64,000 nt of DNA from Thermoanaerobaculia bacterium (GCA_050186295.1 JBFWYP010000004.1:81773-145772); one strand, 5' to 3'; positions 1 to 29,211 are shown, numbered from the stretch's first letter. Program-made: numbers and translations. Notes: generated by a model from the sequence alone, not told the origin.

Positions 1-638
1 AGCACCGGCAGCGCCGGCTCGCCGGAGATCGCGCAGCGCCGCTCGTAGAGATCGGTGATCAGCAGACGGAACGAGCCCGCGCCGAGGCGCGGCCGCACGC
101 GTACCGGCTCGCCGAAGATCTCGCGCTGCGGCTCCGGCACCACCGACGGCTGCAGCGAGCGCAGCAGCGCCACCACCCGCTCCCAGAGCTTCCGCCCCTC
201 GCCGGCATCGACGGCGTAGCTCTTCCCCACCGTCTTCTTCTTGAAGTCGCGCGGCACCGGGATCCAGTCGAGCTCGTCGAAGAAGAACGGCTGCGCGAGG
301 ACGATCGCCCCGACCGCCGGATCCGGCTCCTCCTGCAGCCGTCCCGGGCGGAAGCGCTCGATCCGCGCCAGCATCTCCTCGGCGTTCGCCACGCCGTTCT
401 TCTCGCCGAACGCCTTCCAGGCGAGACTCGCCGGGACGTTGGTCGCGTGGGCGAAGAAGCCGCCGCCGACCACGTAGTCGTCCGGGCTGTGGAGCTTGAA
501 GAGGAACGGCTCGCCCGGCAGGAGCGCCTTGAAGTCGCGCCCGCCGCCGGGCTGCCAGAGATTCACCTCGTCGAGCTCCGGCCGTCGCCGGAGGGACCGG
601 AACCAGTCGTTGTCGGTGACGGCGAGGAACAGGTTCAT
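1..638 (-). CDS. HNH endonuclease-family protein (PF13391-like), N-terminal about 212 aa; C-terminus lies beyond the window edge
   Basis: Own reverse-complement translation from ATG (complement of 636-638): MNLFLAVTDNDWFRSLRRRPELDEVNLWQPGGG...FRLLITDLYERRCAISGEP, the onset of an HNH_2-type motif. The ORF runs off the window start. It is absent from the ORF track, presumably because it is an edge ORF. Confidence 0.5.
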   Translation of the reverse strand, partial: MNLFLAVTDNDWFRSLRRRPELDEVNLWQPGGGRDFKALLPGEPFLFKLHSPDDYVVGGGFFAHATNVPASLAWKAFGEKNGVANAEEMLARIERFRPGRLQEEPDPAVGAIVLAQPFFFDELDWIPVPRDFKKKTVGKSYAVDAGEGRKLWERVVALLRSLQPSVVPEPQREIFGEPVRVRPRLGAGSFRLLITDLYERRCAISGEPALPV

Positions 639-768
639 CGCGCTCCGCCTAGGTTCTCACAGGCGCCCGCGGGCGTCACCTGCAGCCACCGGCGCCCTGC
701 GCCGTGCGGCCGCTCGCCGGCTCCGCCCGTCGCTTGCGCTCCGGTTCGATTTCCAACACGATCGCCGG

Positions 769-2856: not shown

Positions 2857-2941
2857 CGGAGCCGTCCGCCGGAGATCGGCGGCGCGCCGCAGCATAGACT
2901 CCGCCCATGATGCATCGGCTGCAGAGCGACGCAGGTCCGCG

Positions 2942-5662: not shown

Positions 5663-5689
5663 GAGGGCTCCGGATCGGCGCGCGGCGCG

Positions 5690-14818: not shown

Positions 14819-15463
14819 ATGCGTCGATGGCGTTCGAAGCTGCAGTCGAAGTGGGGAATGCGACTCCTCTGGCTGGTGCCGCTCCTGTCGCTCGTCTTCG
14901 AGACCGACCTGACGGCGCTGATCTGGATCGGCACGACGCTGATCGCGCTGATCTTCGTTCCGGCGGCCCGCCAGGCGACGCTGGCGATGGTCTACCGGAA
15001 CGTGCCCCTCTCGCTCGCGATCGGCACCGCGATCGGCGGCTCGCTCGCGCTTCTCCTCGATCCCTGGCTCGAGCCGGCGCTCGAAGCGTGGACCGGTTCG
15101 AAGATCGACCTCTCGCAGCTCGAGAAGCTGCCGGGCGATCCGGGGCAGTACGTCGTCTGGCTGATCCTCGGCATGGGCTTCGGCGGCTTCTGGGAGGAGC
15201 TCTCCTTCCGCGGCTACTTCGTCGGCTGGGGCACGAAGCTCTTCGGCAACTGGACCGCGCTCCCCCTCACTCTCGGCCTCGCGCTCGTCTTCGGCGCCGG
15301 CCACATGTACCAGGACCTCCCCGGCGCCATCTCCACCGGCATCAGCGGCCTGATCTTCGGGCTGACCTACCTCGCCTGCGACCGCAAGCTCCTCCCCGCG
15401 ATCACCGCCCACGCCGTCGCCAACTTCACCGGCGTGACGCAGATCTACCTCTACGGGTTGTAG
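14819..15463 (+). CDS. CPBP family intramembrane metalloprotease (CAAX protease/Abi)
   Basis: ATG at 14819 is preceded by a GGAGGAG RBS. Multi-TM protein with motifs EELSFRGY, FGAGHMYQ and HAVANF. Confidence 0.75.
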   Translation: MRRWRSKLQSKWGMRLLWLVPLLSLVFETDLTALIWIGTTLIALIFVPAARQATLAMVYRNVPLSLAIGTAIGGSLALLLDPWLEPALEAWTGSKIDLSQLEKLPGDPGQYVVWLILGMGFGGFWEELSFRGYFVGWGTKLFGNWTALPLTLGLALVFGAGHMYQDLPGAISTGISGLIFGLTYLACDRKLLPAITAHAVANFTGVTQIYLYGL

Positions 15464-15510: not shown

Positions 15511-16668
15511 TCAACCTGCTTCCGCGGCCAGCTCCTCTGCGTAGCGCTGGTAGGAGAAGATCCGTCCGCGTCGCCGCTTCGTGAGCTCGGCCACCAGCCC
15601 CAGCTTCTCGAGGTGTACGAGCGACTTGTTGACCGTGGCGGGAGTGAGTCCCGTCGCCTCGACGAGCGAGCCGGAGGTCGAGATCGGCTGCCGCTGCAAC
15701 GCCTCGTGCACCGCGAGCGCCGACGGCGCCGCGCGGCCCAGGCCGACGATGCGCTCCCGATCCTCGGCGACCAGGGCGAGGAGCGCGTTCGCCGTGGCGA
15801 CCGCCTGCGCCGCGCTCACCTCGACTCCCTCGGCGAAGAACTCGAGCCAGCTCTCCCAGTCGCCGTGGAGTCGCACCTCGTTCAGCAGCTCGTAGTAGCG
15901 AGCGCGGTGCATCCGGAAGTAGAGGCTCGGATAGAGCATCGGCTCGCGCAGCACACCGTCGGCGACGAGCTGAAGGACGATCAGCAGACGCCCGAGGCGG
16001 CCGTTCCCGTCGAGGAACGGATGGATCGTCTCGAACTGCACGTGCGCGAGCGCCGCCTTGAGCAGCGGCGGCGTGGCCTCGGACTCGTCGTTCAGGAAGC
16101 GCTCGAACTGCCGGAGACAGTCGGGCAGCGCGTTTGCCGGGGGCGGAACGAAGGCGGCGTTGCCCGGCCGAGTGCCGCCGACCCAGACCTGCGAGCGGCG
16201 GATCTCCCCCGGCATCCTGCTCTGCCCGCCGGGATGGGCGAGCAGCACTGCGTGCATTCCGCGCAGCAGTCGCATCGAGAGCGGCATCCCGCCGCGCAGC
16301 GCGGCGAGGCCGTGCTCCAGCGCCGCGACGCAACGACTGACTTCGCGGGCATCCTCCACCGGCACGCCCGGCTGCTCGTCGATCTCGAAGAGCAGCAGGT
16401 CGGCGAGCGAGGACTGCGTGCCTTCGATCTGCGACGAGAGCACCGCCTCCTTGCGTACGAAGCTGTAGAGCACGAGCGCAGCATTCGGCAGATGCTCGGT
16501 GAGTGCATCGAGCCGCCCCAGGGCAACGAGCGCGTCGTCGAAGCGTCGCCGCAACGCCGGCGACCAGACGATGGCCGGCTCCGGCGGCAGCGGTGCAGGC
16601 ACGAACGCCCGGAAGCGCTCGCCGGAGGCGGAGACTTCGACGTAGGTTCCGGGATCGGAGCGGTGCAT
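15511..16668 (-). CDS. Fic family protein (AMPylase) with an N-terminal inhibitory SxxxEG motif and a C-terminal winged-HTH
   Basis: Canonical HPFLDGNGRLGRLL Fic motif. An upstream SSQIEG matches the (S/T)xxxE(G/N) inhibitory helix. The C-terminal wHTH-like segment is ...EATGLTPATVNKSLVHLEKLGLV. Confidence 0.85.
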   Translation of the reverse strand: MHRSDPGTYVEVSASGERFRAFVPAPLPPEPAIVWSPALRRRFDDALVALGRLDALTEHLPNAALVLYSFVRKEAVLSSQIEGTQSSLADLLLFEIDEQPGVPVEDAREVSRCVAALEHGLAALRGGMPLSMRLLRGMHAVLLAHPGGQSRMPGEIRRSQVWVGGTRPGNAAFVPPPANALPDCLRQFERFLNDESEATPPLLKAALAHVQFETIHPFLDGNGRLGRLLIVLQLVADGVLREPMLYPSLYFRMHRARYYELLNEVRLHGDWESWLEFFAEGVEVSAAQAVATANALLALVAEDRERIVGLGRAAPSALAVHEALQRQPISTSGSLVEATGLTPATVNKSLVHLEKLGLVAELTKRRRGRIFSYQRYAEELAAEAG

Positions 16669-16743
16669 GAATATGGCTAGAAACCTGAAACAAGCGACCT
16701 CGTTATTTTAGATTAAGCTCCTTTTCTAAATCAACCTGCCTCC
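16669..16743. promoter_or_regulatory. AT-rich spacer (about 35% GC) between the DUF2779 stop and the Fic start; probably holds the DUF2779 terminator and the Fic promoter
   Basis: The sequence aaacctgaaacaagcgacctcgttattttagattaagctccttttctaaatcaacctgcc is a strong compositional outlier in an approximately 70% GC background. Confidence 0.3.
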
Positions 16744-18303
16744 TCAGCCCCGCTCTGCGACCAGCCGCTCGAGCGCCGCGACGATTTCGATCATCCCCGC
16801 GGTGTCGCGCGCGCAGTAGTCGAGGAGCGCGCGGCGGATCGACTCGCGCTCCGCCGCGGTGGTTCCGGGCGCGTTCGAGCGCACGAACTCGCGCGCCGCG
16901 AGCTGCCCCTCCTGGATCTCGAGCTCGTCGTAGCCGCGGTCGCCCAGCACCGGCAGCACCCGCTTGAGCGAGGCGCTGCCGCGCTGCGCCGGGTGGTAGT
17001 AGTCGAAGCGCGCGAACGGATCGAGCAGATCGACGAGCCGGCCGGTGACGCGCGCCGCCCACTCGACGTGCTCGGGAAAGTGCGCCGCCGTCTCGGCGAG
17101 CACCCGCCGCTCGAACGAAGCGTTGTAGACCAGGATCGCCGGCGGCGGTCCTCCCCCGGCGGCCGCGTCGAGCTCGCCGATCGCCGCCCGCAGCGCCGCG
17201 AGGAAGCCCGCTCGCGGATCGTCGCCGTCCGGCGCCAGCCAGGCGTCGGCGCGCGGCGCCGCACCCTCCTCTTCCAGCCGATGGAGCGAGAACTGGAACG
17301 GGATCTGCTGGTAGGGGCGCGTGCCATCGAACGGCGGCACGGCGGAGGCGAAGGTCTCGAAGTCGAGGAAGAGGCGCGGATACGGGAGCTGCTCGAGGAA
17401 CGAGGCGATCGCCGCGCGATTCACGTGCGCCTCGCCGGTGCGCGCCGCCTCGACCTGGATCCGCTGGTCGGCCTGGAGCTCCGCGGTCGCCGGCAGGGAG
17501 CGGAGGTCGCGCACGCCGCTCCCGTAGAGCTGCCACATCCGCTGCCCGCCGCGGCGGAGGTCGAGGAGGTCGTGCTCCGGCCGTTCGCCCCAGCAGTACG
17601 GCAGGAGCGGGCAGGTGTGCGGCGCCTTGCAGTGCGGACCGATCGCGATCTCCGGCTCCGCCGGAAGCGCCGCGACCGCGACGAGCTCGGCGACCCGCTG
17701 CGGAATCTCCCGCGCCAGCGCCGCGACCTGCTCGCCGAGATCGACGACGGTGAAGAGCCGCCGGAGATCGAGCGCCCCCTCGCGCACGTAGTCCGAGCTC
17801 AGATGCACGAGCGAGGTGCGACGCACCCGCAGCCCGGCCGAGCGCACGATCCAGGCCTGGAGCGCGAGATCCTCGACGTTCTCGTCCCTGGCGGACGTGC
17901 CGCTCTTCACCTCGTACAGATCCCAGGCGCCGGCGCTCCCCGCCTCTCCCCCGTCGTCGTCCACCGGCACCAGGATGTCGACCCGGCAGCCGACGTCGGC
18001 ATCGCCACCACCCTCGCCAGCGCCGCCAGCGCCGCCAGCGACGAACGTCGCCTCGTACAGCGGCAACCGCCAGGCGAGCGCATCGCGCGTCTTCGCCGCC
18101 GCCTCCATCCAGCGGAAGCGTCCACCGGTGATCTCCATCCCGCCCGGAAAGAGCTGCTGCGCCAATCGCCCCACCTCGTGCCCCTGATCGAACACTGCCT
18201 TCGTCGCGGCGTCCACCGGCGGCACGAGCTCCCGGCGATTCGCTTCGATCCAGAGCCGCTTGAAGCACTGCCGGCCGGCGAGGTAGCGGGATTTGGAGAG
18301 CAT
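16744..18303 (-). CDS. DUF2779 protein: Cas4/RecB-like PD-(D/E)xK Fe-S nuclease domain fused to a DnaQ-like DEDD 3'-5' exonuclease domain
   Basis: Starts MLSKSRYLAGRQCFKRLW, the family-typical N-terminus with the first Cys. A D...EVK nuclease core (VDILVPV...DLYEVKSG) and a CKAPHTCPLLPYC Cys cluster. The C-terminal half has Exo motifs LFLDFETF (I), YNASFE (II) and LLDYCARD (III). Confidence 0.7.
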   Translation of the reverse strand: MLSKSRYLAGRQCFKRLWIEANRRELVPPVDAATKAVFDQGHEVGRLAQQLFPGGMEITGGRFRWMEAAAKTRDALAWRLPLYEATFVAGGAGGAGEGGGDADVGCRVDILVPVDDDGGEAGSAGAWDLYEVKSGTSARDENVEDLALQAWIVRSAGLRVRRTSLVHLSSDYVREGALDLRRLFTVVDLGEQVAALAREIPQRVAELVAVAALPAEPEIAIGPHCKAPHTCPLLPYCWGERPEHDLLDLRRGGQRMWQLYGSGVRDLRSLPATAELQADQRIQVEAARTGEAHVNRAAIASFLEQLPYPRLFLDFETFASAVPPFDGTRPYQQIPFQFSLHRLEEEGAAPRADAWLAPDGDDPRAGFLAALRAAIGELDAAAGGGPPPAILVYNASFERRVLAETAAHFPEHVEWAARVTGRLVDLLDPFARFDYYHPAQRGSASLKRVLPVLGDRGYDELEIQEGQLAAREFVRSNAPGTTAAERESIRRALLDYCARDTAGMIEIVAALERLVAERG

Positions 18304-18428
18304 TGGGTCGCCCGGAGGCTGGGCGGAAGAGTATCGCTCCAGGCGGAGAAGACGGAGTTCGCCGGTGTGGCGATGGAAGTGCGACTAGCCCCCGGCGCTG
18401 TGCCAGAGGACCAAACAAATCCAGGCAG

Positions 18429-19100
18429 CTAGCCCGGCCGCTCCAAGACCCGGAAGTATGTATCGAGGTGGACGCGCTCCACGTTCCACTTCCTCGAGAC
18501 CTGGAGTGCGGCCTCTTGAAACCGCTCGTTGCTCTCCACGTCGATGTCGCCGATCTTCCGCCACGCCGGAGCAATGTCCGGCTCCAGCTCGTGGAGACGC
18601 CGGCCGGAGATACTGTCGAGAGGGACCTCGAACCAGTCCGGCGAAACCTTCGAGCCGAACTCGGACTTCAGGAACGCGTTGTAGTAGCAGTCGCGAAGAA
18701 AGATGTTCAGACACTTTCGCGCCAGCCCCCAGGCGCATCGTCCGACTCCAACGGCCTCCTGAATCCTGTCCGTCCAGCGATCGAGTGCCGCGAGGGGCCT
18801 CTTCTGGCCCGACACTCCAAAACTCGACAGGCGGACGTGAGAGAGCGCCGAACGAAGATCGTCGACGAGTCCAGCTTTCTGCCCTCGAGCCGTGGAAGCG
18901 CCAACGGCAAGCCTCGCGCATCGGAGATCAATGGCGAGATGCAAACTAGGCCGCTTCTTGAGAGAAGCCGCCGCTGGGCCCCGGGGTGAACGAGCGGATC
19001 CGCATCGGGGCCGGTGGTTGTCGGCCCTGCCTTCACTCTCAGCATCACTTCGGCATACGAGCCTGTCGCCGCTGTCGACTTCGCTTCGCCACGCTGGCAT
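18429..19100 (-). CDS. Hypothetical protein in the SIR2 operon; start uncertain
   Basis: The C-terminal 130 aa are protein-like and lower in GC (…CLNIFLRDCYYNAFLKSEFGSKVSPDWFEVPLDSISGRRLHELEPDIAPAWRKIGDIDVESNERFQEAALQVSRKWNVERVHLDTYFRVLERPG). The ATG at 19100 is 14 nt after the upstream gene's stop. The N-terminal part is compositionally poor, so the true start may lie further downstream. Confidence 0.4.
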   Translation of the reverse strand: MPAWRSEVDSGDRLVCRSDAESEGRADNHRPRCGSARSPRGPAAASLKKRPSLHLAIDLRCARLAVGASTARGQKAGLVDDLRSALSHVRLSSFGVSGQKRPLAALDRWTDRIQEAVGVGRCAWGLARKCLNIFLRDCYYNAFLKSEFGSKVSPDWFEVPLDSISGRRLHELEPDIAPAWRKIGDIDVESNERFQEAALQVSRKWNVERVHLDTYFRVLERPG

Positions 19101-19114
19101 TTGCGCATCCAACG

Positions 19115-19771
19115 CTAGGGTGAGGCGCCGGGCGCCAAACCTACCGAAACCAAGTAGCGATTGTGCAGTTCCACGAATAGCTTCAGCAACCGCCCAACCT
19201 CGTTCACACAAGACGGTGCGAGAGGGCCGGACCACTCGATTCCAGAGTGCAGAAACCCGTTTCGTGCTTTTGCAACTTCGCCAAGAAATTCCCAGCCCTC
19301 TTCCGCTTCGAGCTCAGCCACTGCTCGATCGAGCGGAACGGCAGTGAGGGTCTGAAACAACTCGGCCATTCGGCGCCGTCCTCGAGCCTTGTCGAATAGA
19401 TCCCGCTGTTCCTCGTTGGCGAGACCTTTGCGCACCATTAGCCTCTTTAGGAGGTGGCGCAGCAACGCTTCCTGAAGGGCACAGAAATAGTTAACAGTCG
19501 CTAGTTCCGCGCCCTTGTTTGCCCAAGGCGGCGCCCCTCCAATGGAGAGTGCCAGCCATCGTTGCTGTTGCATGAGATCCACTAAAGAAAGCACCTGCAT
19601 CGGGAAGTAGGCGCGCGACACAACATTCTCAACACCGCATGCCGGGCAAGGCCATGGCACCGCTGCTCCAAACCGGCCCACGACATCGCACTGGTGGCAG
19701 ATGATGTAGCCACCGAGGACCGCTGAAAGGGGTTGGAGCGGATCGATGTCGTAGAGTTGAAGCTGGGCCAT
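19115..19771 (-). CDS. Zinc-ribbon protein with a HEPN-like RNxxxH motif (candidate RNase effector)
   Basis: CHQC-x16-CPAC zinc ribbon (aa 25-45). The rest is alpha-helical. KARNGFLHSG (R170, N171, H175) fits the HEPN Rx4-6H / RNxxxH signature. GC is lower than in flanking DNA. Confidence 0.6.
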   Translation of the reverse strand: MAQLQLYDIDPLQPLSAVLGGYIICHQCDVVGRFGAAVPWPCPACGVENVVSRAYFPMQVLSLVDLMQQQRWLALSIGGAPPWANKGAELATVNYFCALQEALLRHLLKRLMVRKGLANEEQRDLFDKARGRRRMAELFQTLTAVPLDRAVAELEAEEGWEFLGEVAKARNGFLHSGIEWSGPLAPSCVNEVGRLLKLFVELHNRYLVSVGLAPGASP

Positions 19772-19828
19772 GAACCCGCGTTCAAGCCTGCGTCACTTTC
19801 CAAATCACTCCTAGCTCTCTCGCGACCA

Positions 19829-22624
19829 TCAACTTTGGCTCCTCAGTGTCCTGTAGAGCTCCTCAGCACCTTCGATCCTTCGCATCCGTTCAAGCAGTCG
19901 AAAGGATTCCGACCTGAAACCGGCTGATGAGAGCCTTCTCACCGTCTCTAGCAAGTGGCCATCCAGATCGAAGTCGGGCTCACTGGCGTCCAACGCGAGG
20001 CTGAGCAGGACAAGAACCTCATGCGGGTTCAAGTCCGCTAGCCGTACAAACTCTTCGGCCACTTCATAAAAGTCGACGCCTTTCGCCACTTCTGGAATCA
20101 CTCTCCTCAGCCAGTCCATTGCCTCGTCATCAAGCCGCTCGACGAAGCAGATAAGACGACCAAGGGCTCTCTTCAGTTCAGCCAGACTTCCGGCACCCTC
20201 ATCGCGCAACTCCAGAGTCCGCCGGACGAAGCTGAGGATCTTTGCCACCTGCGTCGCCTCTAGACCTTGCCGCTCAAGTGCCCAATAAAGGTGAGCCACA
20301 ACGACAAGATCCTCCTCACGGCCACTTCCCACGAGAAAGGTCAGGTTCTCGCCGTCGAGCTCCTCCTCCCCCCAGAGATAGCCCAAGCCAACAGACTCCA
20401 CTAGCCGCTCTCGGGCCTGGCGGCCTCTCGGGGGGTGCCTCAGGCCATCGAGAATGACCCCACCGTCGCGAAGAGCACGATAGACGGCACGGGATGTCGC
20501 CGCGTACGCCAATCCGTCCAAGGCGCTCTCCCTCGTCAAACGCCCCTCGAGGGAGAAAACACCCAGAGCCCTTGATCGCACCCACTCGTCGTCTAGATAG
20601 TAGAAGTTTGAAAGCCGCGAGCCGAGCAAAGTTGAGAACTCGAAATTTCCATCCGTGCACCGATCCAACTCACGATCAAAGATCGGCCGAACACGGCTCC
20701 AGGCTGTCGAATGCCCCGCCTTGGCTAGATCAGCCTCGCGACAGCTTCGTAGGGTCAGGCCAATCAGTGACTCAATGACCTTCCCGCGAGTACTGTTGAT
20801 CGCCTGATGCATTGGGTCATCGTCGAGGGTATCGGCAGGCTTCAGGCGATCAAGTAGCGCAGTTGTGATTTCGATCGCAACCTCAAGCAAAGAAGCCGGA
20901 ATCCCTCGGAGCTCGTCACGCGCTCCGGCGGCTAGCGCCTTCATAGCAGCGCTCGAAACGGCCTCTGGCTCCCCCTTCCATGAGAGCACTTCCCTAGTTG
21001 CCCAAGACTCATCGGTAAGCAAGAACTTACGCACGCCGTTGATCAGCTGCTTCCAGAGTTCCGCAGTATCAATGGCTATCTCGGCAACAGAATTCTTTGA
21101 CCAGAGCCTGCTCACGGCCATTAGGAATGCATAAAAGTATTCCGGCCGCGCCTCTAGATAGATAGCCGGGGCGCGAAGGAATTCTTCCGGTGACTCCACA
21201 ATCGCTTCCTCAAACTCTTGAATCAACGCGTCGACGGGGGATCCATTCCACGTCTCATCGCCTCGCATCGCGTTGATCTGCGAAATCAAGGTACCCTCGA
21301 TCGCCATGGCCTTTAGAGCGCCACGTGACAGCGGAGAGGGGCCCGGCCCCCACCTGGTCTCGTGGTAGATCTGGAAGTCGGGGTGCTCGGATGATGGCAA
21401 TGCCCCGGCCGCATTCGCCTTGGCGAGAACCTCTTCAACCCAAGCAAGCCCTTTCCCCTCCAAAGCCCGGAGCCACTTCGCCGTTCGAAATAGAAACTCC
21501 CTCTCGTCATCAGGGTTTGCTCGGGCAACCTCTTCAATCGCAGAGCGCGTTAGCTCCTTCTGCTCTTCACTGAACTCGGCCCATCGTTGCGCAACCAACT
21601 CATAGGTCTCGTGAAACAGATCGACCGCAAAGTGTGCGGTGTTCGGATGAAATGCGGACGCGAGCCCAGCCCATCTCTCTTTTAGGACGTAAAGGCCAAT
21701 CCTGCGAAGAATCTGCGAATCGCTTCGCAAAAGGCCCTCGACAAACTCTCGCGCTCCAGCCTGGCCCGAATCAATCCACTCAAGCGTTGAATCACGAAGC
21801 GCTTCGACAAACCCGTTTGCGACAGCCTCCCAGCTGTGATTCTGATCGTGGTCGCCGATCGATGGTCGAATAGAGCAGCTGAGTTGCTGACCGAGAGATG
21901 TTCCAAAGACCTGGCGGATTCGATCCGAAAGGAGTGCCGTCGCGTCCGCTCCCATTTCCCGGCCGAAAGTTTTTGCGTGGTCCAGCAGAAGCTTTCTTAG
22001 CCAGTACGCTTCGACAGCCGGAACGGCGCGCCCCTGGTCAAGGTCGTCGCTCGCCGGTTCCCGAACTGAAAGAGCGGTCAGGTGCCCGAATACCCGAAGT
22101 GCTAACACTTTGCATCGCGGCTCCTCGCTTCCAAGGAGATTTGAGAGAAGACCCTTGGAAACTGCCTCTGAGACAAGCGCACCTTCGAACCTTCCGGCGA
22201 GCCAAATTGGCAGGAGATCCACGGTCTCTTCACGGATGAGCGAAACCGGAACCGCGCCCAAGATTTCCGCAAAGATCCGATTGGTGTGGTAGTTATCCCG
22301 CTGCTGGGATCCCGACCCCAGACTAACTTCACGCACTACTTCGAGCACCTGCGCTCCGAGCTCGAGATCAGGCTTGGAGCTGGACCGCCTAGCGACCGCA
22401 AGGAGATATCTGAGTACAGGCCAGAAGGGAATTCGGTAGTAGCCCCTGTTCGCCTCGTCTTCCACCGGCACTGGATTCTCGCCAGCGGAAAAGAATCCCT
22501 CCTGCAGCAGGTCTTCGAAATGCTTCTCGGGCTTCTCCCGAGCCGCGAGCTCCTCAAATCCGAACGAGGCGAGCTCTCTGCTCGCTCGCAGCTTTCGCAT
22601 GAAGGCCTCGAAGTTCGCACTCAC
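19829..22624 (-). CDS. Large (931 aa) alpha-helical protein without recognisable catalytic motifs; candidate sensor partner of the SIR2 protein
   Basis: Single long protein-like ORF in a reduced-GC region. No Walker A/B, HxH, DxD or nuclease motifs were seen. Its start overlaps the SIR2 stop (ATGA at 22621-22624). Confidence 0.7.
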   Translation of the reverse strand: MSANFEAFMRKLRASRELASFGFEELAAREKPEKHFEDLLQEGFFSAGENPVPVEDEANRGYYRIPFWPVLRYLLAVARRSSSKPDLELGAQVLEVVREVSLGSGSQQRDNYHTNRIFAEILGAVPVSLIREETVDLLPIWLAGRFEGALVSEAVSKGLLSNLLGSEEPRCKVLALRVFGHLTALSVREPASDDLDQGRAVPAVEAYWLRKLLLDHAKTFGREMGADATALLSDRIRQVFGTSLGQQLSCSIRPSIGDHDQNHSWEAVANGFVEALRDSTLEWIDSGQAGAREFVEGLLRSDSQILRRIGLYVLKERWAGLASAFHPNTAHFAVDLFHETYELVAQRWAEFSEEQKELTRSAIEEVARANPDDEREFLFRTAKWLRALEGKGLAWVEEVLAKANAAGALPSSEHPDFQIYHETRWGPGPSPLSRGALKAMAIEGTLISQINAMRGDETWNGSPVDALIQEFEEAIVESPEEFLRAPAIYLEARPEYFYAFLMAVSRLWSKNSVAEIAIDTAELWKQLINGVRKFLLTDESWATREVLSWKGEPEAVSSAAMKALAAGARDELRGIPASLLEVAIEITTALLDRLKPADTLDDDPMHQAINSTRGKVIESLIGLTLRSCREADLAKAGHSTAWSRVRPIFDRELDRCTDGNFEFSTLLGSRLSNFYYLDDEWVRSRALGVFSLEGRLTRESALDGLAYAATSRAVYRALRDGGVILDGLRHPPRGRQARERLVESVGLGYLWGEEELDGENLTFLVGSGREEDLVVVAHLYWALERQGLEATQVAKILSFVRRTLELRDEGAGSLAELKRALGRLICFVERLDDEAMDWLRRVIPEVAKGVDFYEVAEEFVRLADLNPHEVLVLLSLALDASEPDFDLDGHLLETVRRLSSAGFRSESFRLLERMRRIEGAEELYRTLRSQS

Positions 22625-23625
22625 GGCTCGGCCTCAAGTAGAGCTCTCATCTCGAGCTTTTCCTGCATTACAAGGGGCGTTGCTGCCGGAATTTCCTTGG
22701 CAAACGCCTCCAGCACGTCAATAAGCTGATCGTAACCTCGCCCATCTAGCGCAAACGGAACTAGTTCGATTCCACACTCCTCGCGGTAGTAAGTTCTAAG
22801 CCTTCGCATCATCGCTAGTTCATGCGTGAAATATCCCTGAAGCATGTAGTGCCGCTGAGCTCTTCCAGCCTCTGACCTGTGCCTCGCCTTCTGAACAACG
22901 TACTCGAGAACCTCAAGTTCGTCGAAGCCGTAGCCAACAAACAACACACTGTACTGACTAAAGAGATGCTCCAAGAATGTCAAGATGCGATTCTCATCCT
23001 GACTCGTTCGAACGAACCTATCGTTTGCGTAGTGATCCAAGTAGTCCCGCGTGGTGAGAACCATCTCTTCAGGGAACTCAATCGAACCGTGAAGGTGAAC
23101 GACGGTATCCGGCTGTCTCAGGTCGTCTGGGAGTATCAGGCTCGGTTTGCTCACCATCCTGCGCTTTAGCCGTTGCGGAGCGCTATTCATCGCCGCTTCA
23201 GGCTCGAAGTCGCCCCGATACTCGCGGTCCTCGTCTAGCCACCGATCGTAGTTCGTCGTGACGAAATTCCTCGACAGTCGCGACAGGGCGCGATAGAGCC
23301 GAATACCCTTCTCGTTCTTCTCCCAATCCTTCGGATGGAGTATTGCCTGGAAATCGATTGGCGTGCTGTGTTCCCGCGCCAGTGCGGTGGCAATCGCCAG
23401 TTTGATCTTGGCACCCTTGCGTTTGAGAAGTTCGACTTCAGCGTGATTCAGCTTTCCTCTTTCAACGAAGAATTGTAAGCACCTGTCGGCAAAACCGCTC
23501 CAATCTGGGCATCCAGCGAGCCGCGATGCGCCCGCACCTACGAAAGGCCTAAGGTAACCGATGGCTGCGGCCTCGCGAAGGCCTTCGGGGATCGCTGGTA
23601 TCGCTTGAATATCTGCCAGAGACAT
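22621..23625 (-). CDS. SIR2-like (SIR2_2/DHS-like NAD-binding) domain protein, defence-type NADase candidate
   Basis: MSLADIQAIP...LRPFVGAGASRLAGCPDWSGF (the GAGxS loop), VTTNYDRWLDE (the TTNYD motif) and VVHLHGSIE (the catalytic His motif). It is 334 aa with no deacetylase Zn module. Confidence 0.8.
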   Translation of the reverse strand: MSLADIQAIPAIPEGLREAAAIGYLRPFVGAGASRLAGCPDWSGFADRCLQFFVERGKLNHAEVELLKRKGAKIKLAIATALAREHSTPIDFQAILHPKDWEKNEKGIRLYRALSRLSRNFVTTNYDRWLDEDREYRGDFEPEAAMNSAPQRLKRRMVSKPSLILPDDLRQPDTVVHLHGSIEFPEEMVLTTRDYLDHYANDRFVRTSQDENRILTFLEHLFSQYSVLFVGYGFDELEVLEYVVQKARHRSEAGRAQRHYMLQGYFTHELAMMRRLRTYYREECGIELVPFALDGRGYDQLIDVLEAFAKEIPAATPLVMQEKLEMRALLEAEP

Positions 23626-23780
23626 CGGACCCGAACCTAGACCTGGACTCTGAAGCTCTTCATCACCTCACCCTCCAGCTGATTGATTACCCTCACCGCA
23701 ATCTCCCCCGACTTCGCTTTCTCGAACAGCCTTGAAGTGTCACTACGGTACGTCGCCCAAGCCTCGTCGTCGAAATCGGC

Positions 23781-24287
23781 TCAGAGCGTCGTCTTGAGCG
23801 CCTTGCAGGGCACGTTGGCGCCGAGGAAACAGTTGTTGCGAGCGAAGATCTCTCCTTCGGTATAGTCGGAGTCAATGGCCCAGCGGGCGACGCCGACGAC
23901 GTCGCCGCAGCGGATCTCGCCAGTCTTGGGGCCGAAGATGTCGGCGCCCTTGACCTTGACGCGATTCTGAGCGCTTTGACCCTGAACAGTCTCGGAACCG
24001 GGTTCGCGGAAATTGACAAAGTAACTGCCGCTGTTCCGCGCCTCCAATTTGTGAACCAGCCGTACTCTCACAAGCCTGTGGTTCCCATCCTCCACGCGGT
24101 TGTCGACCGCCGTATTCCGAGCCGGGCACGTCACCGCGTTAGTCGGCCGGCAGGTGTGCCAACGCCACTCGCGTGGTGCCTGCGCTCGCAATTCGGATCC
24201 CGCGTCAGTCACGCTAGGTTCTCCAGATATTCCAAGACACAGATTAGGTGCGCGGAGCACCGAAGAATCTATCGTGCAGTCCATCAA
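23781..24287 (-). CDS. Possible small orphan ORF or gene remnant in the 740-nt spacer between the two defence modules; start uncertain (track TTG at 24287 or internal GTG near 24071)
   Basis: The C-terminal about 95 aa are protein-like (…YFVNFREPGSETVQGQSAQNRVKVKGADIFGPKTGEIRCGDVVGVARWAIDSDYTEGEIFARNNCFLGANVPCKALKTTL). No family was recognised and the N-terminal part is weak. Confidence 0.25.
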   Translation of the reverse strand: MMDCTIDSSVLRAPNLCLGISGEPSVTDAGSELRAQAPREWRWHTCRPTNAVTCPARNTAVDNRVEDGNHRLVRVRLVHKLEARNSGSYFVNFREPGSETVQGQSAQNRVKVKGADIFGPKTGEIRCGDVVGVARWAIDSDYTEGEIFARNNCFLGANVPCKALKTTL

Positions 24288-24365
24288 GTTGGCCTCCCAA
24301 AGCGAGGTCCGACGAGCTCCCCGCTCGAGTCTCTCACTTCGGCAAGTGTGCCCTCCAGAACGCCT

Positions 24366-26828
24366 TCAAATTCCCACAACGGCGACGAATTCCCCGACAA
24401 CTCGCACTACTTCGGGCGCTTCCGGCTCCAACACGATTGCCTCGTACCCACCCCGGTCGCTGTCGGGACTGAGAACGATCCGCTCGTGCTGCCAACTCCC
24501 GTCTTCGGCTGCCCCCTTGTCGCTCCTGTAGAGCTTCACCGTGTAGCGGCCCCCGGACTCCGGGTCGGATCCTTCGCGTAGCTCGACCAAGACCACCTTC
24601 CCGGCCCTCGAGCCCGCTGGCGCTTCGCGGAACAGGCACCAGGAGCCGTTCGGGATCCGCCGGTTCATCGACTCGCCGACCACCTGGATCAGGAATCTCC
24701 CGGGGCGGGCTGGGAAATCTTCCGGAAGTGCGACCCAATCGATAGCTTCTGACACCTCGCCGTCCTCCGCCGCCTGAATCAGGGCCTGGAACTCGCTGAA
24801 GCCGCCTGCCGCTGCGCGCAGGTCGAAAACCGGGATGGCGTTCTCGAAAGGCCGAAGCGCTTCGGCAGCCACTCGCTCGAACGGGAGCGAGCGGGCGGGC
24901 CGGCTCTCGGGGGGTGAGGTTGCCTCCGCTTCGTCGGCGCGGCCGGGAAATGCGAGCGGAGTACCGATCCGGCTGCGAAAGAAGCGCTCGGTGTCTTTGT
25001 CCTCGAAGTAGACGAAGCAGCCCTTGAGGCCACGCGAGAGAAGGACTCGGTAGGTGTTCTTCACCAGGGCCAGGAATTCACCCTTCGCTCGCTTGACCTT
25101 GGTGTCCTGCGACACTTCCGGATGCCCCTCCCACACCTGTCGGTCGAGGTCATAGGTCAAGTCTTTCCCGAAGATGACGCCGACAAAGTCGAACTCGAAT
25201 CCCTGCGCCGTATAGACACAGCCGATCTGGAAAAGACCTCCTGGATCGTGCGCCCAGAGATTGGACTTGGGGATACCTGGGGCGAGCTTCCCGGCGTCGG
25301 GCCTGGCATTCCATGGCCGCGCGAATCCGTCGATGGTGACATCGTTCTCGAGCTGGCCGTTCTTGTCCGGTTTCGACCAAGGCCAACAGAATCCGGCAGT
25401 GAGGCGCGCCGTTGCTCCGGCCTGCACTTTCGAACGAATCAGCTGATCGAGCTCCTCGGGGCTCTCGCAGATGCCGAACTCGAAGCCTTCCTCGGTCTGC
25501 AGGATGCTGCTCGGCGTCTTTTCGATTCCGAGCGTGTTGTTGACCCACTCGACGAACTGGTCGGAGCCGGCGCAGCGGAACTGTGCGTGCAGCTCATACT
25601 CGAGCACGCGGCAACCCAGTGACGCGGCACTGGAGCGGATGTAGTCCGTAGAGCCGATCTCTCCAGGCCGCACGACCTGGCGATCGTCCACGAAGTAGAC
25701 GCTCACCTTGGAGGCATGGATCAGCTCCTCGACCTGCGGTAGGCCGCTGCGCCGACTCTTCGGCGTAAACCGGTCCACGCTCGTCGTCCGGATCCGGTGC
25801 GACTCGTCGCAGATCAGAACGTCGATCTCGTTCGGTTGCGCCTCGACGTAGCTATTGAAGTACTTGAACTGCACCTGGCTCCGCGAGCCGACCATTTTCC
25901 GCAGCGTTTCCGTGAACGCCTTCGAACCGGTCGCATAGTGCGAGTTGAAGCCCTCCGCGAGAAGCGAGCTCATGAGATTGAGCGCGATGACCGACTTCCC
26001 GGTCCCGGGTCCGCCACGAACGATCAGGACGGTCTTCTTCGCGTCGTGGAAGCCGGACTTCGCCAGCGCGAGGACCTTGCTGTGAACGACCAGCTGCTCA
26101 TCCAGGAGGACATACTGCGGCAGGCCCTGAATCACCTTCGCGACGTGGTCCATCAAGCGCTTGCTGGCGCGGTACTTTCCCTCTTCGATGCGCTGCAGGA
26201 CCGGCATCCCGTCCCCGCCACGGAGCCGCTCCGCGAGGAACTGAGAGAGCTCGTCGGAGTGCGACGCAGTGAATGACGGCGCCTCCTGGAGAATCTGCTG
26301 GTAGCGCGGGCGGAAAAGGGTGTCGTCGGCGACCGGGTTGTAGTTGTGCAGAAAGGCGCAGGCGGTCACCCCGACGGGCGACTCTCCTTCGTAGAAGGCG
26401 GTGTGCCCATCCTTCAGATACTGCCTGTAGGCGTTCGCCTGGGCAGATGGGTGCAGAACGTCGCGGATCGCACCGCCGACCCAGGTCTGCACCAGATTCT
26501 CGCCGTCCGACTCCTCACACTGCTCCCACTGCTTGAGCTCGATGATGATCGCCTGGGCCCGGCCCGGCTCGTCGTGCCCGCAAACGAGGCAGTCGAGCCG
26601 CTTCGATGTCAGTGGCAGTTTGTATTCGAGGAGAACGCCGTGGTCGTCGAGCGAGGAGCGCTGGAACGTCAGCGTCAGTGCGCGGAGCGAGTTCTGCCAG
26701 GAAGCGACCTCGCCATCGCCGGGCTTGTATCCGAAGTGGGCGACGAAAGCCTCGACGAGCTTGCCGGCAATCCGGTTCCGTGCCGTGTCCTCGAAGAGCT
26801 GGGTCGTGCTTCCTGAATACAGCCTCAT
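24366..26828 (-). CDS. DUF2075-type nuclease/P-loop NTPase (PD-(D/E)xK N-domain plus SF1-like ATPase) fused to a C-terminal LexA/S24-like peptidase domain
   Basis: N-terminal SWQNSLRAL and ...RLDCLVCGHD...AIIIELKQW (D-ExK). Walker A VRGGPGTGKS (aa 271-279) and Walker B VLICDESHR. The C-terminal 120 aa read ...LRAAAGGF...LIQVVGESMNRRIPNGSWCLFRE...GKVVLVEL...RYTVKLY. This gives a GESM serine nucleophile plus a downstream Lys, with an Ala-Gly about 45 aa upstream. Confidence 0.75.
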   Translation of the reverse strand: MRLYSGSTTQLFEDTARNRIAGKLVEAFVAHFGYKPGDGEVASWQNSLRALTLTFQRSSLDDHGVLLEYKLPLTSKRLDCLVCGHDEPGRAQAIIIELKQWEQCEESDGENLVQTWVGGAIRDVLHPSAQANAYRQYLKDGHTAFYEGESPVGVTACAFLHNYNPVADDTLFRPRYQQILQEAPSFTASHSDELSQFLAERLRGGDGMPVLQRIEEGKYRASKRLMDHVAKVIQGLPQYVLLDEQLVVHSKVLALAKSGFHDAKKTVLIVRGGPGTGKSVIALNLMSSLLAEGFNSHYATGSKAFTETLRKMVGSRSQVQFKYFNSYVEAQPNEIDVLICDESHRIRTTSVDRFTPKSRRSGLPQVEELIHASKVSVYFVDDRQVVRPGEIGSTDYIRSSAASLGCRVLEYELHAQFRCAGSDQFVEWVNNTLGIEKTPSSILQTEEGFEFGICESPEELDQLIRSKVQAGATARLTAGFCWPWSKPDKNGQLENDVTIDGFARPWNARPDAGKLAPGIPKSNLWAHDPGGLFQIGCVYTAQGFEFDFVGVIFGKDLTYDLDRQVWEGHPEVSQDTKVKRAKGEFLALVKNTYRVLLSRGLKGCFVYFEDKDTERFFRSRIGTPLAFPGRADEAEATSPPESRPARSLPFERVAAEALRPFENAIPVFDLRAAAGGFSEFQALIQAAEDGEVSEAIDWVALPEDFPARPGRFLIQVVGESMNRRIPNGSWCLFREAPAGSRAGKVVLVELREGSDPESGGRYTVKLYRSDKGAAEDGSWQHERIVLSPDSDRGGYEAIVLEPEAPEVVRVVGEFVAVVGI

Positions 26829-26831
26829 CGA

Positions 26832-27206
26832 TCAGAGCCGATCGTACTTGCGGTTGCTGCCGCGCGATCTCTCGACCGGATATTTCGACTCGTTGACCAC
26901 CAGCTTGGCGCGCAACGCATTCGCGGGGTCGATCCCGTTCCGCTCACAGAACCGCAGGAGAAAGAAGAGTGTGTCGCCGATCTCGTGTTCGATCGCCAGG
27001 CGATCGTTGGCGTCCGCGAGCCGCTCCTCGACCTCCTCGTCGCTCAGGAAGCGGAACTGCGCGAGGAGCTCGGCCGCTTCGGTGGCAAGCCCGATCGCCA
27101 GATCTTTGGGTGAGTGAAACGGATCCCACTCGCGCGCCTCGCAAAAGGCCTGGACCTCCTTCGCCAGCGCCGCAAGCGTGTCGCTCCTCGCACTGCCCTC
27201 GCTCAT
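26832..27206 (-). CDS. MazG-like nucleotide pyrophosphohydrolase (small all-alpha NTP-PPase)
   Basis: ATG at 27206 with a GGGAG RBS 5 nt upstream. It is preferred over the track TTG at 27311, which would leave only 17 nt to the upstream gene. The 124-aa protein has EAAELLAQF...EEExxE...EIGDTLFFLLRF motifs. Its stop lies 3 nt before the start of the downstream DUF2075 gene. Confidence 0.7.
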   Translation of the reverse strand: MSEGSARSDTLAALAKEVQAFCEAREWDPFHSPKDLAIGLATEAAELLAQFRFLSDEEVEERLADANDRLAIEHEIGDTLFFLLRFCERNGIDPANALRAKLVVNESKYPVERSRGSNRKYDRL

Positions 27207-27327
27207 GCGACTCCCATCGAAGTGAATTGCTGGCGGCACTCTACCGAACCGATCCGCCAGGGCCTTCGCCTCCTCACCCGTATCAACGAACAACTCCCCC
27301 AAACCGGTCAAATCGGGCGGAGTTTTC

Positions 27328-28320
27328 TCACCACCCCCACCTCCCCATCCAGTCGACGGCGTTCGAGAGGGCGTCGATCAGGCCGTGGAGGGCGACGATC
27401 AGGAGCCAGTTCCGGGTGCGCAGCCAGAGGACGCCGAAGAGGAGGCCGGCGACGCCCATGGTGGTGATGCTGTAGGCGAGCGCCAGGGCGAGGGAGGGCG
27501 GTTCGGTCATCCCTTCCAGCGCGGCGGCTCCGCGCAGCCAGAGGCCGGGGGCGTGGGCGAGGCCGAAGACGAGGGCCGCAAGGAAGAGGCCGGCCGCCGG
27601 GGAGCGGGTGAGGGCGGCGAGGCGCGACTGCAGGAGGATGCGGAAGAAGGTCTCCTCCACCAGCCCCGCCTCGAGCGACATCCAGAGGAACGAGAGGACG
27701 AGGCCGACGAGCCAGTGGCGGCCGGCGAGCGAGCCGTCGAGGAACGGGCGGGCGCCGTGGCCGATCAGGAGCTGGATCGCGACCATCGCCGCGCCGAGGA
27801 CGACGAAGGCGAGCCAGCTGCGGTTGCGCGTTCGGGCGTCGGAGGGCGGCCCGGGTGGCCAGCCGAGGCCGAGCGCTTTCGGCAATAGCGGCGATCTCCC
27901 GAGAGCGAATCGATAAGCCGCGAGCGGCACCGCGACGAAGACCGCGAGCTTGAGCAGGAGCTCGACCGTGTCGATCCAGCGCGGGTCCGAGCCCGGCGGC
28001 GCGAACGCCGCGACGAGTCGCCCCTTCGCCGCCAGGAAGAGGACCACCCAGCCGACCAGCGCGGCGAGGAGCCATCCCTCCCGCGCCCGCCGCGCGCCGG
28101 GCGCTCCCGCGCCGGAATCCTCTGGAGCCAGCGGCGGCAGCGGCAGACCGCGGCAGACGAGGAGCGCGACTCCGGGGAGCGCCAGGCCGAAGATCAGGAG
28201 GAGGAAGAGCGGGCCCTCGAGCGGCTTTCCGAGAGCCGCGAGGGTCGCGCCGCCCGCCAGCCAGGCGGCGGCGAAGAGCGCGAAGGCGATGGTCCCGGCC
28301 CGGCTCGCGCGGGCGGTCAT
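27328..28320 (-). CDS. CPBP family intramembrane metalloprotease (second copy, 331 aa)
   Basis: Internal ATG at 28320 gives MTARASRAGTIAFALFAAAWLAGG. Multi-TM protein with motifs EETFFR, FGLAHAPG and HGLIDALSNAV. Confidence 0.7.
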   Translation of the reverse strand: MTARASRAGTIAFALFAAAWLAGGATLAALGKPLEGPLFLLLIFGLALPGVALLVCRGLPLPPLAPEDSGAGAPGARRAREGWLLAALVGWVVLFLAAKGRLVAAFAPPGSDPRWIDTVELLLKLAVFVAVPLAAYRFALGRSPLLPKALGLGWPPGPPSDARTRNRSWLAFVVLGAAMVAIQLLIGHGARPFLDGSLAGRHWLVGLVLSFLWMSLEAGLVEETFFRILLQSRLAALTRSPAAGLFLAALVFGLAHAPGLWLRGAAALEGMTEPPSLALALAYSITTMGVAGLLFGVLWLRTRNWLLIVALHGLIDALSNAVDWMGRWGW

Positions 28321-28526
28321 CCTGTTCGGGTCTCCATGCCCGATCCCCCCGGAAGGTGACAGCGAAAGGGCGACTCTACCCGAGCGCTCCGCGCGGGCCA
28401 GGTCCACGAATTCCGGTCGCCGCTTCGACTGGGGTCATGCCCGTTTCGGCGCCAGGTTCCGGCGCCGATTCGCGTCTCTTTCGACGGGAGGACACAAGTT
28501 GACCACTATGTCATTTCTGACATACC

Positions 28527-28868
28527 ATGGCCGGCGGTGACGAGGAGCGTCCGCTCGTGTGGCTCGGGGGAGAGATTCGCACTCCGCCGCTCTCCCACGC
28601 AGCCCGCGTCGAAGCCGGCCTGCTGCTCCGGCGCCTGCAGGCGGGCGAATCGATCGGCATGCCGTACTGCCGGCCCATGCCGTCGGTCGGCGAGCGCTGC
28701 TACGAGCTGCGAATTCCGGATCGCGCGACCAGTTGGCGCATCGTCTTCCGGCTCGACGCAGATGCCGTCGTGCTGCTCGAGGTCTTCGCGAAGAAGACGC
28801 GGGCAACCCCATCGTCGGTGATCCAGACCTGCAGGCGGAGGCTCCGCAGGTACGAAGGGAGAGTGTGA
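28527..28868 (+). CDS. higB: Type II toxin, Gp49-like/HigB-like RelE/ParE superfamily
   Basis: A 113-aa protein. ERPLVWLGG...CYELRIPDRATSWRIVFRLDADAVVLLEVFAKKT matches the Gp49/HigB pattern. It is followed 25 nt later by an XRE-HTH gene. Confidence 0.65.
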   Translation: MAGGDEERPLVWLGGEIRTPPLSHAARVEAGLLLRRLQAGESIGMPYCRPMPSVGERCYELRIPDRATSWRIVFRLDADAVVLLEVFAKKTRATPSSVIQTCRRRLRRYEGRV

Positions 28869-28893
28869 TGCACGGAATCGTCGGAGAGATCCC

Positions 28894-29211
28894 ATGAAAC
28901 CCGCCAAGCGCGCGCGGCTCGAAGCCTCCGGCTGGACTGTCGGTACGGCGGCGGAGTTCCTCGCTCTCGACGAGATCGAGTCGGCGATCGTCGACCTGCG
29001 ACTGACCCTCGGCCGGTCCCTTCGCGATCGGCGGACCCGCAGAGGACTCACCCAGTCGGAGCTCGCGCGGCAACTCGGTTCGAGTCAGTCGCGGGTGGCG
29101 AAGATGGAGGCCGCGGACGCCTCGGTATCGCTCGACCTGCTGATCCGCTCGCTTGTCGCACTCGGAGCGCGATCGAAGGAGATCGCGCGGGCCATCGCAC
29201 CCGGTTCCTGA
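28894..29211 (+). CDS. higA: XRE-family HTH antitoxin (HigA-like)
   Basis: A 105-aa protein. LRDRRTRRGLTQSELARQLGSSQSRVAKME is a canonical HTH_XRE. A GGAGAG RBS precedes the start. It pairs with the upstream toxin. Confidence 0.7.
   Translation: MKPAKRARLEASGWTVGTAAEFLALDEIESAIVDLRLTLGRSLRDRRTRRGLTQSELARQLGSSQSRVAKMEAADASVSLDLLIRSLVALGARSKEIARAIAPGS

Follow-up and report, generated by a model that had tools for sequence, protein, structure and literature searches.

Extent and composition of the compositionally foreign block

A stretch of 64,000 nucleotides from the metagenome-assembled genome (MAG) of an uncultured Thermoanaerobaculia bacterium of the Acidobacteriota (GCA_050186295.1, JBFWYP010000004.1:81773-145772; this whole stretch is called the window here, and positions are counted from its first letter) carries, downstream of the housekeeping gene ychF, a run of minus-strand genes from families that recur in phage defence, and the question it raises is whether these genes form an acquired island, how far that island extends and what its parts might do. 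We consider it probable that a variable region downstream of ychF accumulated about 9 kb of foreign DNA (18.3–27.3 kb) piecemeal, giving a mosaic defence island made up of a split DSR1-type pair, a MazG-like/nuclease-helicase/S24 pair, an orphan zinc-ribbon HEPN protein and gene debris, set among resident neighbors and with the module roles proposed below. It is an ordinary mosaic defence island, routine in itself, smaller than had been claimed and with one interesting candidate system. In most prokaryotes defence genes cluster in variable, compositionally foreign regions. We infer the defence roles of the block's genes from homology and context, and the biochemical activities, triggers and defence phenotype of all the modules are inferred as well.

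Gene calls rest on the strong GC bias of this genome at third codon positions (GC3), and 32 host genes from the same window, with a GC3 of 0.894 ± 0.048, served as the reference set. The window is ~71% GC overall, while its 1-kb windows at 18–27 kb have GC values of 0.56–0.65 versus 0.67–0.77 elsewhere, and a 200-bp GC profile places the edges of this dip at ~18.4 kb and ~27.3 kb. The compositionally foreign block is about 9 kb long (18304..27327, no strand), has GC values of 0.54–0.64 versus 0.71 ± 0.023 for the host, and has as its edges the intergenic gaps 18304–18428 and 27207–27327. Its tetranucleotide distance to the rest of the window is 0.36–0.59, versus a background of 0.12–0.23, and is greatest (0.49–0.59) across 18–25.5 kb. 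The genes for the zinc-ribbon HEPN protein, the 931-amino-acid (aa) sensor and the SIR2 protein have GC3 values of 0.61–0.63 (z of −5.5 to −6.0 versus the 32 host genes), a methyltransferase-like open reading frame (ORF) lies 2.8 standard deviations (sd) below the host mean, and the MazG-like and DUF2075-S24 genes have GC3 values of 0.81–0.83 (z of −1.3 to −1.7) with total GC at a z of −3.0 to −3.3. The Fic and DUF2779 genes to their left, at GC3 values of 0.883 (z −0.2) and 0.913 (z +0.4), are indistinguishable from the host genes. The compositional anomaly is real, far beyond chance, ~9 kb long and of two GC grades.

The sequence-only reading of this DNA had described a lower-GC stretch of ~12 kb and called it an acquired island; windowed GC, GC3 and tetranucleotides bear out the dip, and the block is indeed foreign and rich in defence genes, but the claimed extent shrinks to 18304–27327, as Fic and DUF2779 are host-like and native. 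Its description of minus-strand, tightly packed genes holds for all genes from 15.5 to 28.3 kb, and the AT-rich spacer that it pointed out lies at 16669–16743 (GC 0.40) and includes a promoter-like site; shuffled sequence contains promoter- and terminator-like sites at no lower frequency. The family calls Fic, DUF2779, SIR2_2, MazG-like, DUF2075/SLFN-g3 helicase, Gp49/HigB with XRE, and two Rce1-like/CPBP genes were also confirmed. No Rfam family was found at E values up to 0.1.

A DSR1-type pair encoded by two overlapping genes

Two adjoining genes of the block encode a SIR2 NADase subunit of 334 aa (22621..23625, minus strand; Pfam SIR2_2, E 9.5e-19) and a sensor subunit of 931 aa (19829..22624, minus strand). 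The SIR2 protein matches positions 1–292 of the 1227 positions of the PADLOC Dsr1 model PDLC04166 (E 1.2e-53), and the 931-aa protein matches the consecutive part of the same model, positions 310–1166 (E 8.1e-83); the two genes overlap by 4 bp (GTGA), in which the stop codon of SIR2 and the GTG start of the sensor gene coincide. What the sequence-only reading had listed as a SIR2 NADase-type protein with a large partner is such a pair, and can be named more specifically, after PADLOC, as a DSR1-type protein split in two genes. Scores against the NCBIfam Dsr1 equivalog are 28.3 and 28.1 bits, below its cut-off of 1400.

The division into two genes is not peculiar to this genome. Sixteen of the 19 non-self sensor homologues are stand-alone proteins of 894–952 aa with 30–37% identity, and the remaining three are two shorter or partial proteins and one distant protein of 1206 aa. 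In all four contexts examined (Desulfovibrionales, a proteobacterium, Candidatus Uhrbacteria and a metagenome contig) a ~330-aa SIR2_2 gene lies directly upstream of the sensor gene and overlaps it by 4–8 bp, while all other neighbors differ, and a fifth further split pair, very divergent, is found on the Vibrio coralliilyticus plasmid pOCN014. The SIR2 subunits are better conserved (44–50%) than the sensors (31–37%), and their GAGxS, TTNYD (N125) and HLHGS (H179) motifs are invariant across five orthologues. Within a fused Bacillus "SIR2 family protein" of 1333 aa there is a stretch with which the N-terminus of the sensor aligns, as is expected if a DSR1-type protein has been split. A search of solved structures by sequence gave no match for the 931-aa sensor, alone or as a profile, and the sensor family was not found in IMG/VR viral contigs.

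On plasmid pOCN014, which is mobilizable, the pair (a 306-aa SIR2 protein and a 942-aa partner, at 210–5748 of locus L026) adjoins a SLATT-domain gene.

DSR1 (defence-associated sirtuin 1) is said to go back to work by Gao and colleagues in 2020 and by Garb and colleagues in 2021/2022. Like DSR1, the pair combines a SIR2 domain bearing the catalytic Asn and His with a large sensor region, and its halves together cover one Dsr1 model; unlike DSR1, effector and sensor are here separate, translationally coupled genes, a split that is kept in five other genomes across phyla. DSR1 depletes NAD+ upon infection (bioRxiv 10.1101/2021.12.14.472415), and its TPR-type (tetratricopeptide-repeat-type) sensor, which it shares with Avs7, recognises the phage major capsid protein (PMC12803255, which names "split proteins" in its methods only). 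For the Escherichia coli protein, EcDsr1, the trigger is the major capsid protein. By analogy with DSR1 we take the two proteins to be a two-subunit DSR1-type system that would work as DSR1 does: the 931-aa protein would recognise a structural protein of the phage, which for E. coli Dsr1 is the major capsid protein, and switch on the separately encoded SIR2 protein, which would then destroy NAD+ and abort the infection. The conserved two-subunit form could allow one to study, in an arrangement found in nature, how a SIR2 NADase is switched on in trans by a sensor of the capsid type, and it illustrates that single-protein hidden Markov model (HMM) rules can misread such loci.

A MazG-like protein paired with a nuclease-helicase that ends in a LexA-type domain

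At the right end of the block lie the two genes of a second pair. The first encodes a 124-aa MazG-like all-alpha nucleoside triphosphate (NTP) pyrophosphohydrolase (26832..27206, minus strand; Pfam MazG-like, E 2.5e-7; PHROG pyrophosphatase) whose ExxE...ExxD acidic residues are conserved in 7 orthologues, and the second an 820-aa protein (24366..26828, minus strand) that joins a putative PD-(D/E)xK nuclease, a DUF2075/SLFN-type superfamily 1 (SF1) helicase (SLFN-g3_helicase, PF09848, E 1.7e-82) and an S24 domain. The two genes are 3 bp apart here and −4 to +22 bp apart in the six relatives measured. The MazG-like gene adjoins the helicase gene in 8 of 10 loci, among them S24-less relatives on viral contigs; in seven of these eight it is immediately upstream on the same strand, and in the other (L021) it is on the opposite strand. 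NCBI annotates the larger gene with a shorter product of 613 aa, which is a gene-calling effect on the same sequence: the 820-aa ORF is coding throughout, with a GC3 of 0.84 in its N-terminal 207 codons, so the long ORF is real. Its family has more than 7800 homologues, the top 120 of which are 791–828 aa long (except the 613-aa NCBI call of the same gene), are 53–76% identical and are in many cases annotated Peptidase_S24. In an 18-sequence alignment D79...E97-L-K99, a PD-(D/E)xK motif that marks the putative N-terminal nuclease domain, is invariant, as are the Walker A sequence at 272–279 (GGPGTGKS) and the Walker B residues D341-E342.

The sequence-only call of a DUF2075 nuclease-NTPase was correct for this protein; its LexA/UmuD-like S24 domain (aa 655–820; 24369..24866, minus strand) had gone unnoticed. 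Within these C-terminal 166 residues A673, A674, G718, S720, M721 and K765 do not vary in the same 18-sequence alignment, where G675 has a conservation of at least 90%. The Pfam model Peptidase_S24 (PF00717) scores 23.7 bits, with a cut-off of 23.3, and matches 13 of 13 family members tested. Solved structures searched by sequence gave no match for the full-length protein; the isolated C-terminal-domain profile alone reached LexA, its best matches being LexA C-terminal domains. With an AlphaFold2 model of the domain (predicted local distance difference test score, pLDDT, 74), the top 34 Foldseek matches in the PDB are LexA, lambda CI and UmuD, some of them fragments that contain the cleavage-site region. 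The AAG, GxSM (GESM) and TVK motifs align on A83-A84-G85, S119 and K156 of E. coli LexA, and this alignment places a putative self-cleavage site at Ala674-Gly675 (24804–24809, minus strand). Judged by its residues and its predicted fold, the C-terminal domain is an S24 domain.

The pair is a conserved operon and behaves as a unit: its homology to the nearest relative at the nucleotide level (75%) spans the two coding sequences and no more. In 3 of 3 S24-bearing contexts elsewhere it abuts recognised defence genes (HNH, McrBC-type, ZacB/ZacC-like and PDC-S05). For the 820-aa protein PADLOC gives only partial matches (PDC-S41, AbiO and Nhi, around the P-loop), the MazG-like protein has no match there, and a literature search found no description of the combinations DUF2075 with MazG, DUF2075 with S24, Nhi-like with MazG, or S24 with RecA and anti-phage. 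We regard the pair as an apparently undescribed, widespread candidate defence system, its thousands of homologues across phyla making it abundant.

Two further observations concern the neighborhoods of these modules. HNH_2 nucleases of ~300 aa (L005 8897–9790, ScoMcrA-like; L013 12484–13383; L015 4624–5619) stand directly beside split-DSR1 and MazG/DUF2075-S24 modules in different genomes, as a recurrent neighbor and not a conserved component. An S24-less pair of MazG and nuclease-DUF2075 genes is present on contigs classified as viral (L020, IMGVR_UViG_GVMAG-S-1041346-124_000001, at 4243–6485; also L017 and L018), one of which is labelled as a giant-virus MAG; this could reflect carriage by mobile elements or viruses, or contig misclassification.

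Nhi and Nhi-like proteins (nuclease-helicase immunity) were reportedly described by Bari and colleagues and by Millman and colleagues, both in 2022. Like these experimentally validated defence proteins, the 820-aa protein has a DUF2075 SF1 helicase, preceded by an N-terminal domain that is a putative PD-(D/E)xK-type nuclease; unlike Nhi, which is described as a single-gene system, it has an additional C-terminal S24 domain and a MazG-like partner, adjacent in the 8 of 10 loci mentioned above, and it matches the PADLOC Nhi model only weakly and partially (2e-10, aa 238–390), so that by sequence it falls outside that model. With LexA, lambda CI and UmuD it shares the S24 fold and an alignable Ala-Gly cleavage-site motif and Ser/Lys dyad, and in one respect it resembles UmuD in particular, in that the partner of the S24 domain is a DNA-transaction enzyme and not a repressor; unlike all three, its S24 domain is fused C-terminally to a 650-aa nuclease-helicase and not to a helix-turn-helix (HTH) domain or to the short N-terminal arm of UmuD. 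UmuD sets the precedent here: it has an S24 domain that switches on an enzyme of DNA transactions, in that UmuD cleavage activates Pol V.

These likenesses suggest how the pair might act. RecA filaments on single-stranded DNA (ssDNA), or a comparable damage or replication signal, would during infection stimulate self-cleavage at Ala674-Gly675; loss of the C-terminal domain would license the nuclease-helicase to degrade replicating phage DNA; and the MazG-like enzyme would act on the (d)NTP pool, trimming or sanitising it. RecA-independent LexA-like proteins also exist, for example IrvR (PMC7101444). That the pair is an unrecognised and widespread anti-phage system of precisely this kind, in which RecA-ssDNA filaments on intermediates of phage replication or recombination are a direct infection signal at the protein level, self-cleavage unleashes the nuclease-helicase and the MazG-like protein acts on the nucleotide pool, is a tentative proposal, which we think possible but would sooner doubt than assert. 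If it is true, the self-cleaving switch of LexA type on an effector enzyme would couple immunity to RecA filaments in a simple way, after translation.

An orphan zinc-ribbon HEPN protein and gene debris

The gene at 19115..19771 (minus strand) encodes a 218-aa protein without a match in Pfam, PADLOC, NCBIfam or PHROGs, which is an orphan putative RNase. Its family is small (179 representative clusters). Among 30 members the zinc-ribbon cysteines C28, C42 and C45 are invariant and C25 is conserved in at least 90%, and in the RNxxxH motif (HEPN Rx4-6H) R170 and H175 are invariant and N171 is conserved in at least 90%. The protein has the four helices of the HEPN fold, and five of the 30 relatives match HEPN_RiboL-PSP, weakly. 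The earlier ZnR/HEPN-like call is supported by both the cysteines and the HEPN motif. Compared with the HEPN toxins of HEPN-MNT pairs and with Abi-type HEPN RNases, the protein has an N-terminal four-Cys zinc ribbon, and unlike in HEPN-MNT pairs no MNT or other antitoxin candidate adjoins its gene. It would thus be a third component of the island, a putative RNase effector from a compact, unnamed family.

Two small ORFs look like what is left of longer genes. A 167-aa ORF holds, in its last ~95 codons (23781..24065, minus strand), the 3'-terminal remnant of a DNA methyltransferase gene: residues 74–167 alone give matches, to positions 875–937 of the 983 of PADLOC MTase_III and 603–696 of the 743 of PHROG 67, and also, at 38–46% identity, to the C-terminal ends of plasmid site-specific DNA methyltransferases, while the 5' portion is not coding-like. 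On these alignments the ORF is a methyltransferase gene remnant. A 128-aa ORF (18429..18815, minus strand) matches, at 32–36% identity, the C-terminal ~115 aa of hypothetical proteins of ~180 aa that plasmids of Ralstonia, Cupriavidus and Burkholderia encode in defence-type contexts; its upstream extension does not look coding, a hairpin resembling a terminator is present at 18437–18421, and the ORF may be truncated at its 5' end. The methyltransferase fragment and the possibly truncated small ORF would be debris of earlier occupants.

We considered whether the zinc-ribbon HEPN, 167-aa and 128-aa ORFs are accessories of the split DSR1 or MazG modules and rejected this, since elsewhere none of the three recurs beside either module.

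Origin of the block and competing explanations

The same locus is present, with 6 substitutions across 21 kb, in a sibling MAG, GCA_050251375.1, and two Logan assemblies carry it at 100% identity, so the gene arrangement is not an assembly accident of one data set. Three more distant relatives were anchored by YchF (84–88% identity), and their downstream regions have only Fic in common with the window, and that in one case; beyond YchF and this one Fic, nothing of 8.4–34 kb is common to the YchF-anchored relatives. Scans of GTDB representatives with the 462-aa gene of the left flank and of JGI metagenomes with the 411-aa gene of the right flank returned nothing above 24–27% identity. Since the neighborhood is not syntenic in the YchF-anchored relatives, the whole of it is a variable region in which an empty site cannot be defined. 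The nearest homologues of the main modules sit in unrelated phyla, in differing neighborhoods. Horizontal acquisition of the block fits its composition, the module-sized homology to distant phyla and the gene debris.

A number of findings weigh against such a mosaic of acquired defence modules. No tRNA or tmRNA was found, no integrase or transposase was present among the 20 flank and right-arm ORFs scanned (a scan that left aside the ORFs of 47.3–64 kb), and no convincing direct repeats were found at the block boundaries, where the repeats seen are imperfect, GC-rich chance matches; the sequence-only statement that integrase, transposase, tRNA and obvious direct repeats are lacking stands within these ORFs and this boundary-repeat search. 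No empty site was found in the relatives, so acquisition is read from composition and phyletic pattern alone. The GC3 of the MazG-like and nuclease-helicase genes is only 1.3–1.7 sd under that of the host genes, PADLOC v2 has no model that covers this pair as a system, and its family is unusually well conserved (53–59% identity across phyla). Such conservation is less usual in defence genes, which evolve fast, and would suit a repair function as well. Relatives that lack the S24 domain exist on viral contigs and plasmids, so the core function can do without it. Finally, the zinc-ribbon HEPN protein of the window matches no Pfam HEPN model.

For the MazG-like/nuclease-helicase pair the main rival is that it is an SOS-type DNA-damage repair or replication-restart function tied to RecA filaments, with the MazG-like enzyme sanitising nucleotides, that rides along in variable regions. 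In its favor are a LexA/UmuD-type domain with intact cleavage site and catalytic dyad, for which UmuD is a precedent, the high conservation across phyla, and the want of a defence-database model or literature description. We nonetheless think it unlikely: the pair is compositionally foreign here, is patchily distributed and moves as a two-gene unit, it adjoins recognised defence genes in all three S24-bearing contexts, its predicted domain organisation matches that of the validated Nhi and Nhi-like proteins, and relatives are found on plasmids and viral contigs.

That all of 15.5–27.3 kb, Fic and DUF2779 included, is one 12-kb island inserted as a unit between two hotspot or defence CPBP genes would explain why ten genes lie tightly packed on one strand with a CPBP gene on each side, and would suit the SoFic label that PADLOC gives to the Fic gene. 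We judge this improbable, as Fic and DUF2779 have host composition and a Fic gene of 71% identity stands near YchF in the nearest relative without the rest, the two CPBP proteins are unrelated in sequence and without a PADLOC match, and the block itself shows two GC grades, gene remnants and homology to relatives that is module-sized. The claim of a single unit in the sequence-only reading is not sustained: the block brings together two or more two-gene modules that are mobile independently of each other, an orphan gene and what is left of decayed ones.

A still smaller chance attaches to the view that the block is native DNA whose composition arises from gene-specific constraints or low expression. 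It would account for the failure to find mobility genes, boundary repeats or an empty site, but GC3, which is largely free of protein constraint, is up to 6 sd lower across several adjacent unrelated genes and intergenic DNA is low too, the nearest homologues are in other phyla, and the loci that were retrieved from the closest relatives, downstream of YchF, contain none of these genes. Most improbable is that the SIR2/931-aa pair is a DSR1 pseudogene broken by a frameshift, which we rejected because, although its ORFs match adjoining stretches of one HMM built for a single protein and are one frame apart at the 4-bp overlap, the same split, with overlaps of 4–8 bp, recurs in five further, unrelated genomes across phyla with sensors 21–37% identical, most non-self sensor homologues (16/19) stand alone, both ORFs are intact and full-length, and the SIR2 catalytic residues are invariant.

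Resident neighbors and flanking genes

Fic, DUF2779, both CPBP proteases and HigBA would, in the mosaic explanation that we prefer, be resident neighbors of the block and not imports. The Fic gene (15511..16668, minus strand) encodes a 385-aa SoFic-like Fic AMPylase with a C-terminal winged helix-turn-helix (wHTH) domain (Fic_N and Fic domains; PADLOC SoFic, E 9.6e-109) and has both the catalytic motif HPFLDGNGRLGR, of the HxFx(D/E)GNGRxxR type, and an SSQIEG inhibitory-helix motif. SoFic is reportedly a single-gene Fic defence protein, described by Millman and colleagues in 2022. The protein resembles SoFic in matching the PADLOC model over its full length, in its intact Fic motif and in the C-terminal wHTH; unlike SoFic, it stays below the cut-off of the NCBIfam SoFic equivalog (138.5 bits versus 550), and its gene has host-like composition and an orthologue in a relative. 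The latter, 71% identical, lies near YchF in the closest relative (L023, GCA_031403995.1), in the same orientation and position relative to YchF; host composition and this counterpart together make Fic resident. It is a resident Fic protein with no more than a possible defence role.

The neighboring DUF2779 gene (16744..18303, minus strand; Pfam DUF2779, E 8.4e-35) lies outside the foreign block and encodes a 519-aa protein with no PADLOC match. By eye, this protein has a PD-(D/E)xK-like motif (D...EVK), a Cas4-like cysteine cluster (CKAPHTCPLLPYC) and, within the DUF2779 region, a DnaQ-like FLDFETF motif.

The two CPBP/Rce1-like intramembrane protease genes, at 14819..15463 (plus strand; Pfam Rce1-like, E 1.4e-14) and 27328..28320 (minus strand; Pfam Rce1-like, E 2.4e-14, with a host-like GC3 of 0.91), had been taken to bracket the island. 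Their proteins show no significant similarity to one another (E = 0.13), by which the notion that they are duplicated targets was rejected, neither matches any PADLOC model, and the two are not adjacent in any relative examined; a reading of the bracket as a meaningful hotspot or defence element is not supported. PF02517 bears its "Abi" label for historical reasons, and the label does not speak for abortive infection. The right CPBP protein weakly resembles, below threshold, CTERM-sorting proteases of the Mrt type (MrtS, MrtJ and the myxosortase core), and its gene is 2.3 kb from that of a protein with an IPTL-CTERM signal (30640–32028). On this sub-threshold similarity the CPBP genes may encode protein-sorting proteases unrelated to phage, with that IPTL-CTERM protein as a possible substrate.

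Beyond the right CPBP gene lies a HigBA module (28527..29211, plus strand), a Gp49/HigB-like toxin gene (28527–28868; PF05973, E 4.5e-12) followed, after a 25-bp gap, by an XRE/HigA-like antitoxin gene (28894–29211; HTH_31/HTH_3); the toxin comes first, the NCBIfam matches are of the antitoxin type, and a promoter-like site is present at 28499–28528.

Five of the six substitutions relative to GCA_050251375.1 fall within 71 bp (30063–30133) of the 411-aa gene at 29311–30546; all five are G/C to T/A transversions, and three change an amino acid (P252T, D267E and V275L). Local hypervariability, a patch of recombination, or an artefact of the assembly or consensus could each account for this cluster. 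The sixth difference is A474V in the DSR1-type sensor, and the rest of the 21 kb is identical.

In the closest relative, L023, a PhdYeFM-PIN toxin-antitoxin pair (9291–9913) is directly upstream of ychF, and after the common Fic gene there follows a gene for a 1192-aa protein without a Pfam family (within 12679–18979 of L023); from these extra genes the ychF neighborhood gathers accessory genes in this lineage. The left flank of the window encodes two large Ser/Thr kinases (2942–5662 and 10013–12448), of which one bears PD40/WD40 repeats and the other TPR, together with a Sel1-repeat protein (8953–9993), a signalling repertoire that at first sight pointed to a myxobacterium and is unusually rich for a bacterium.

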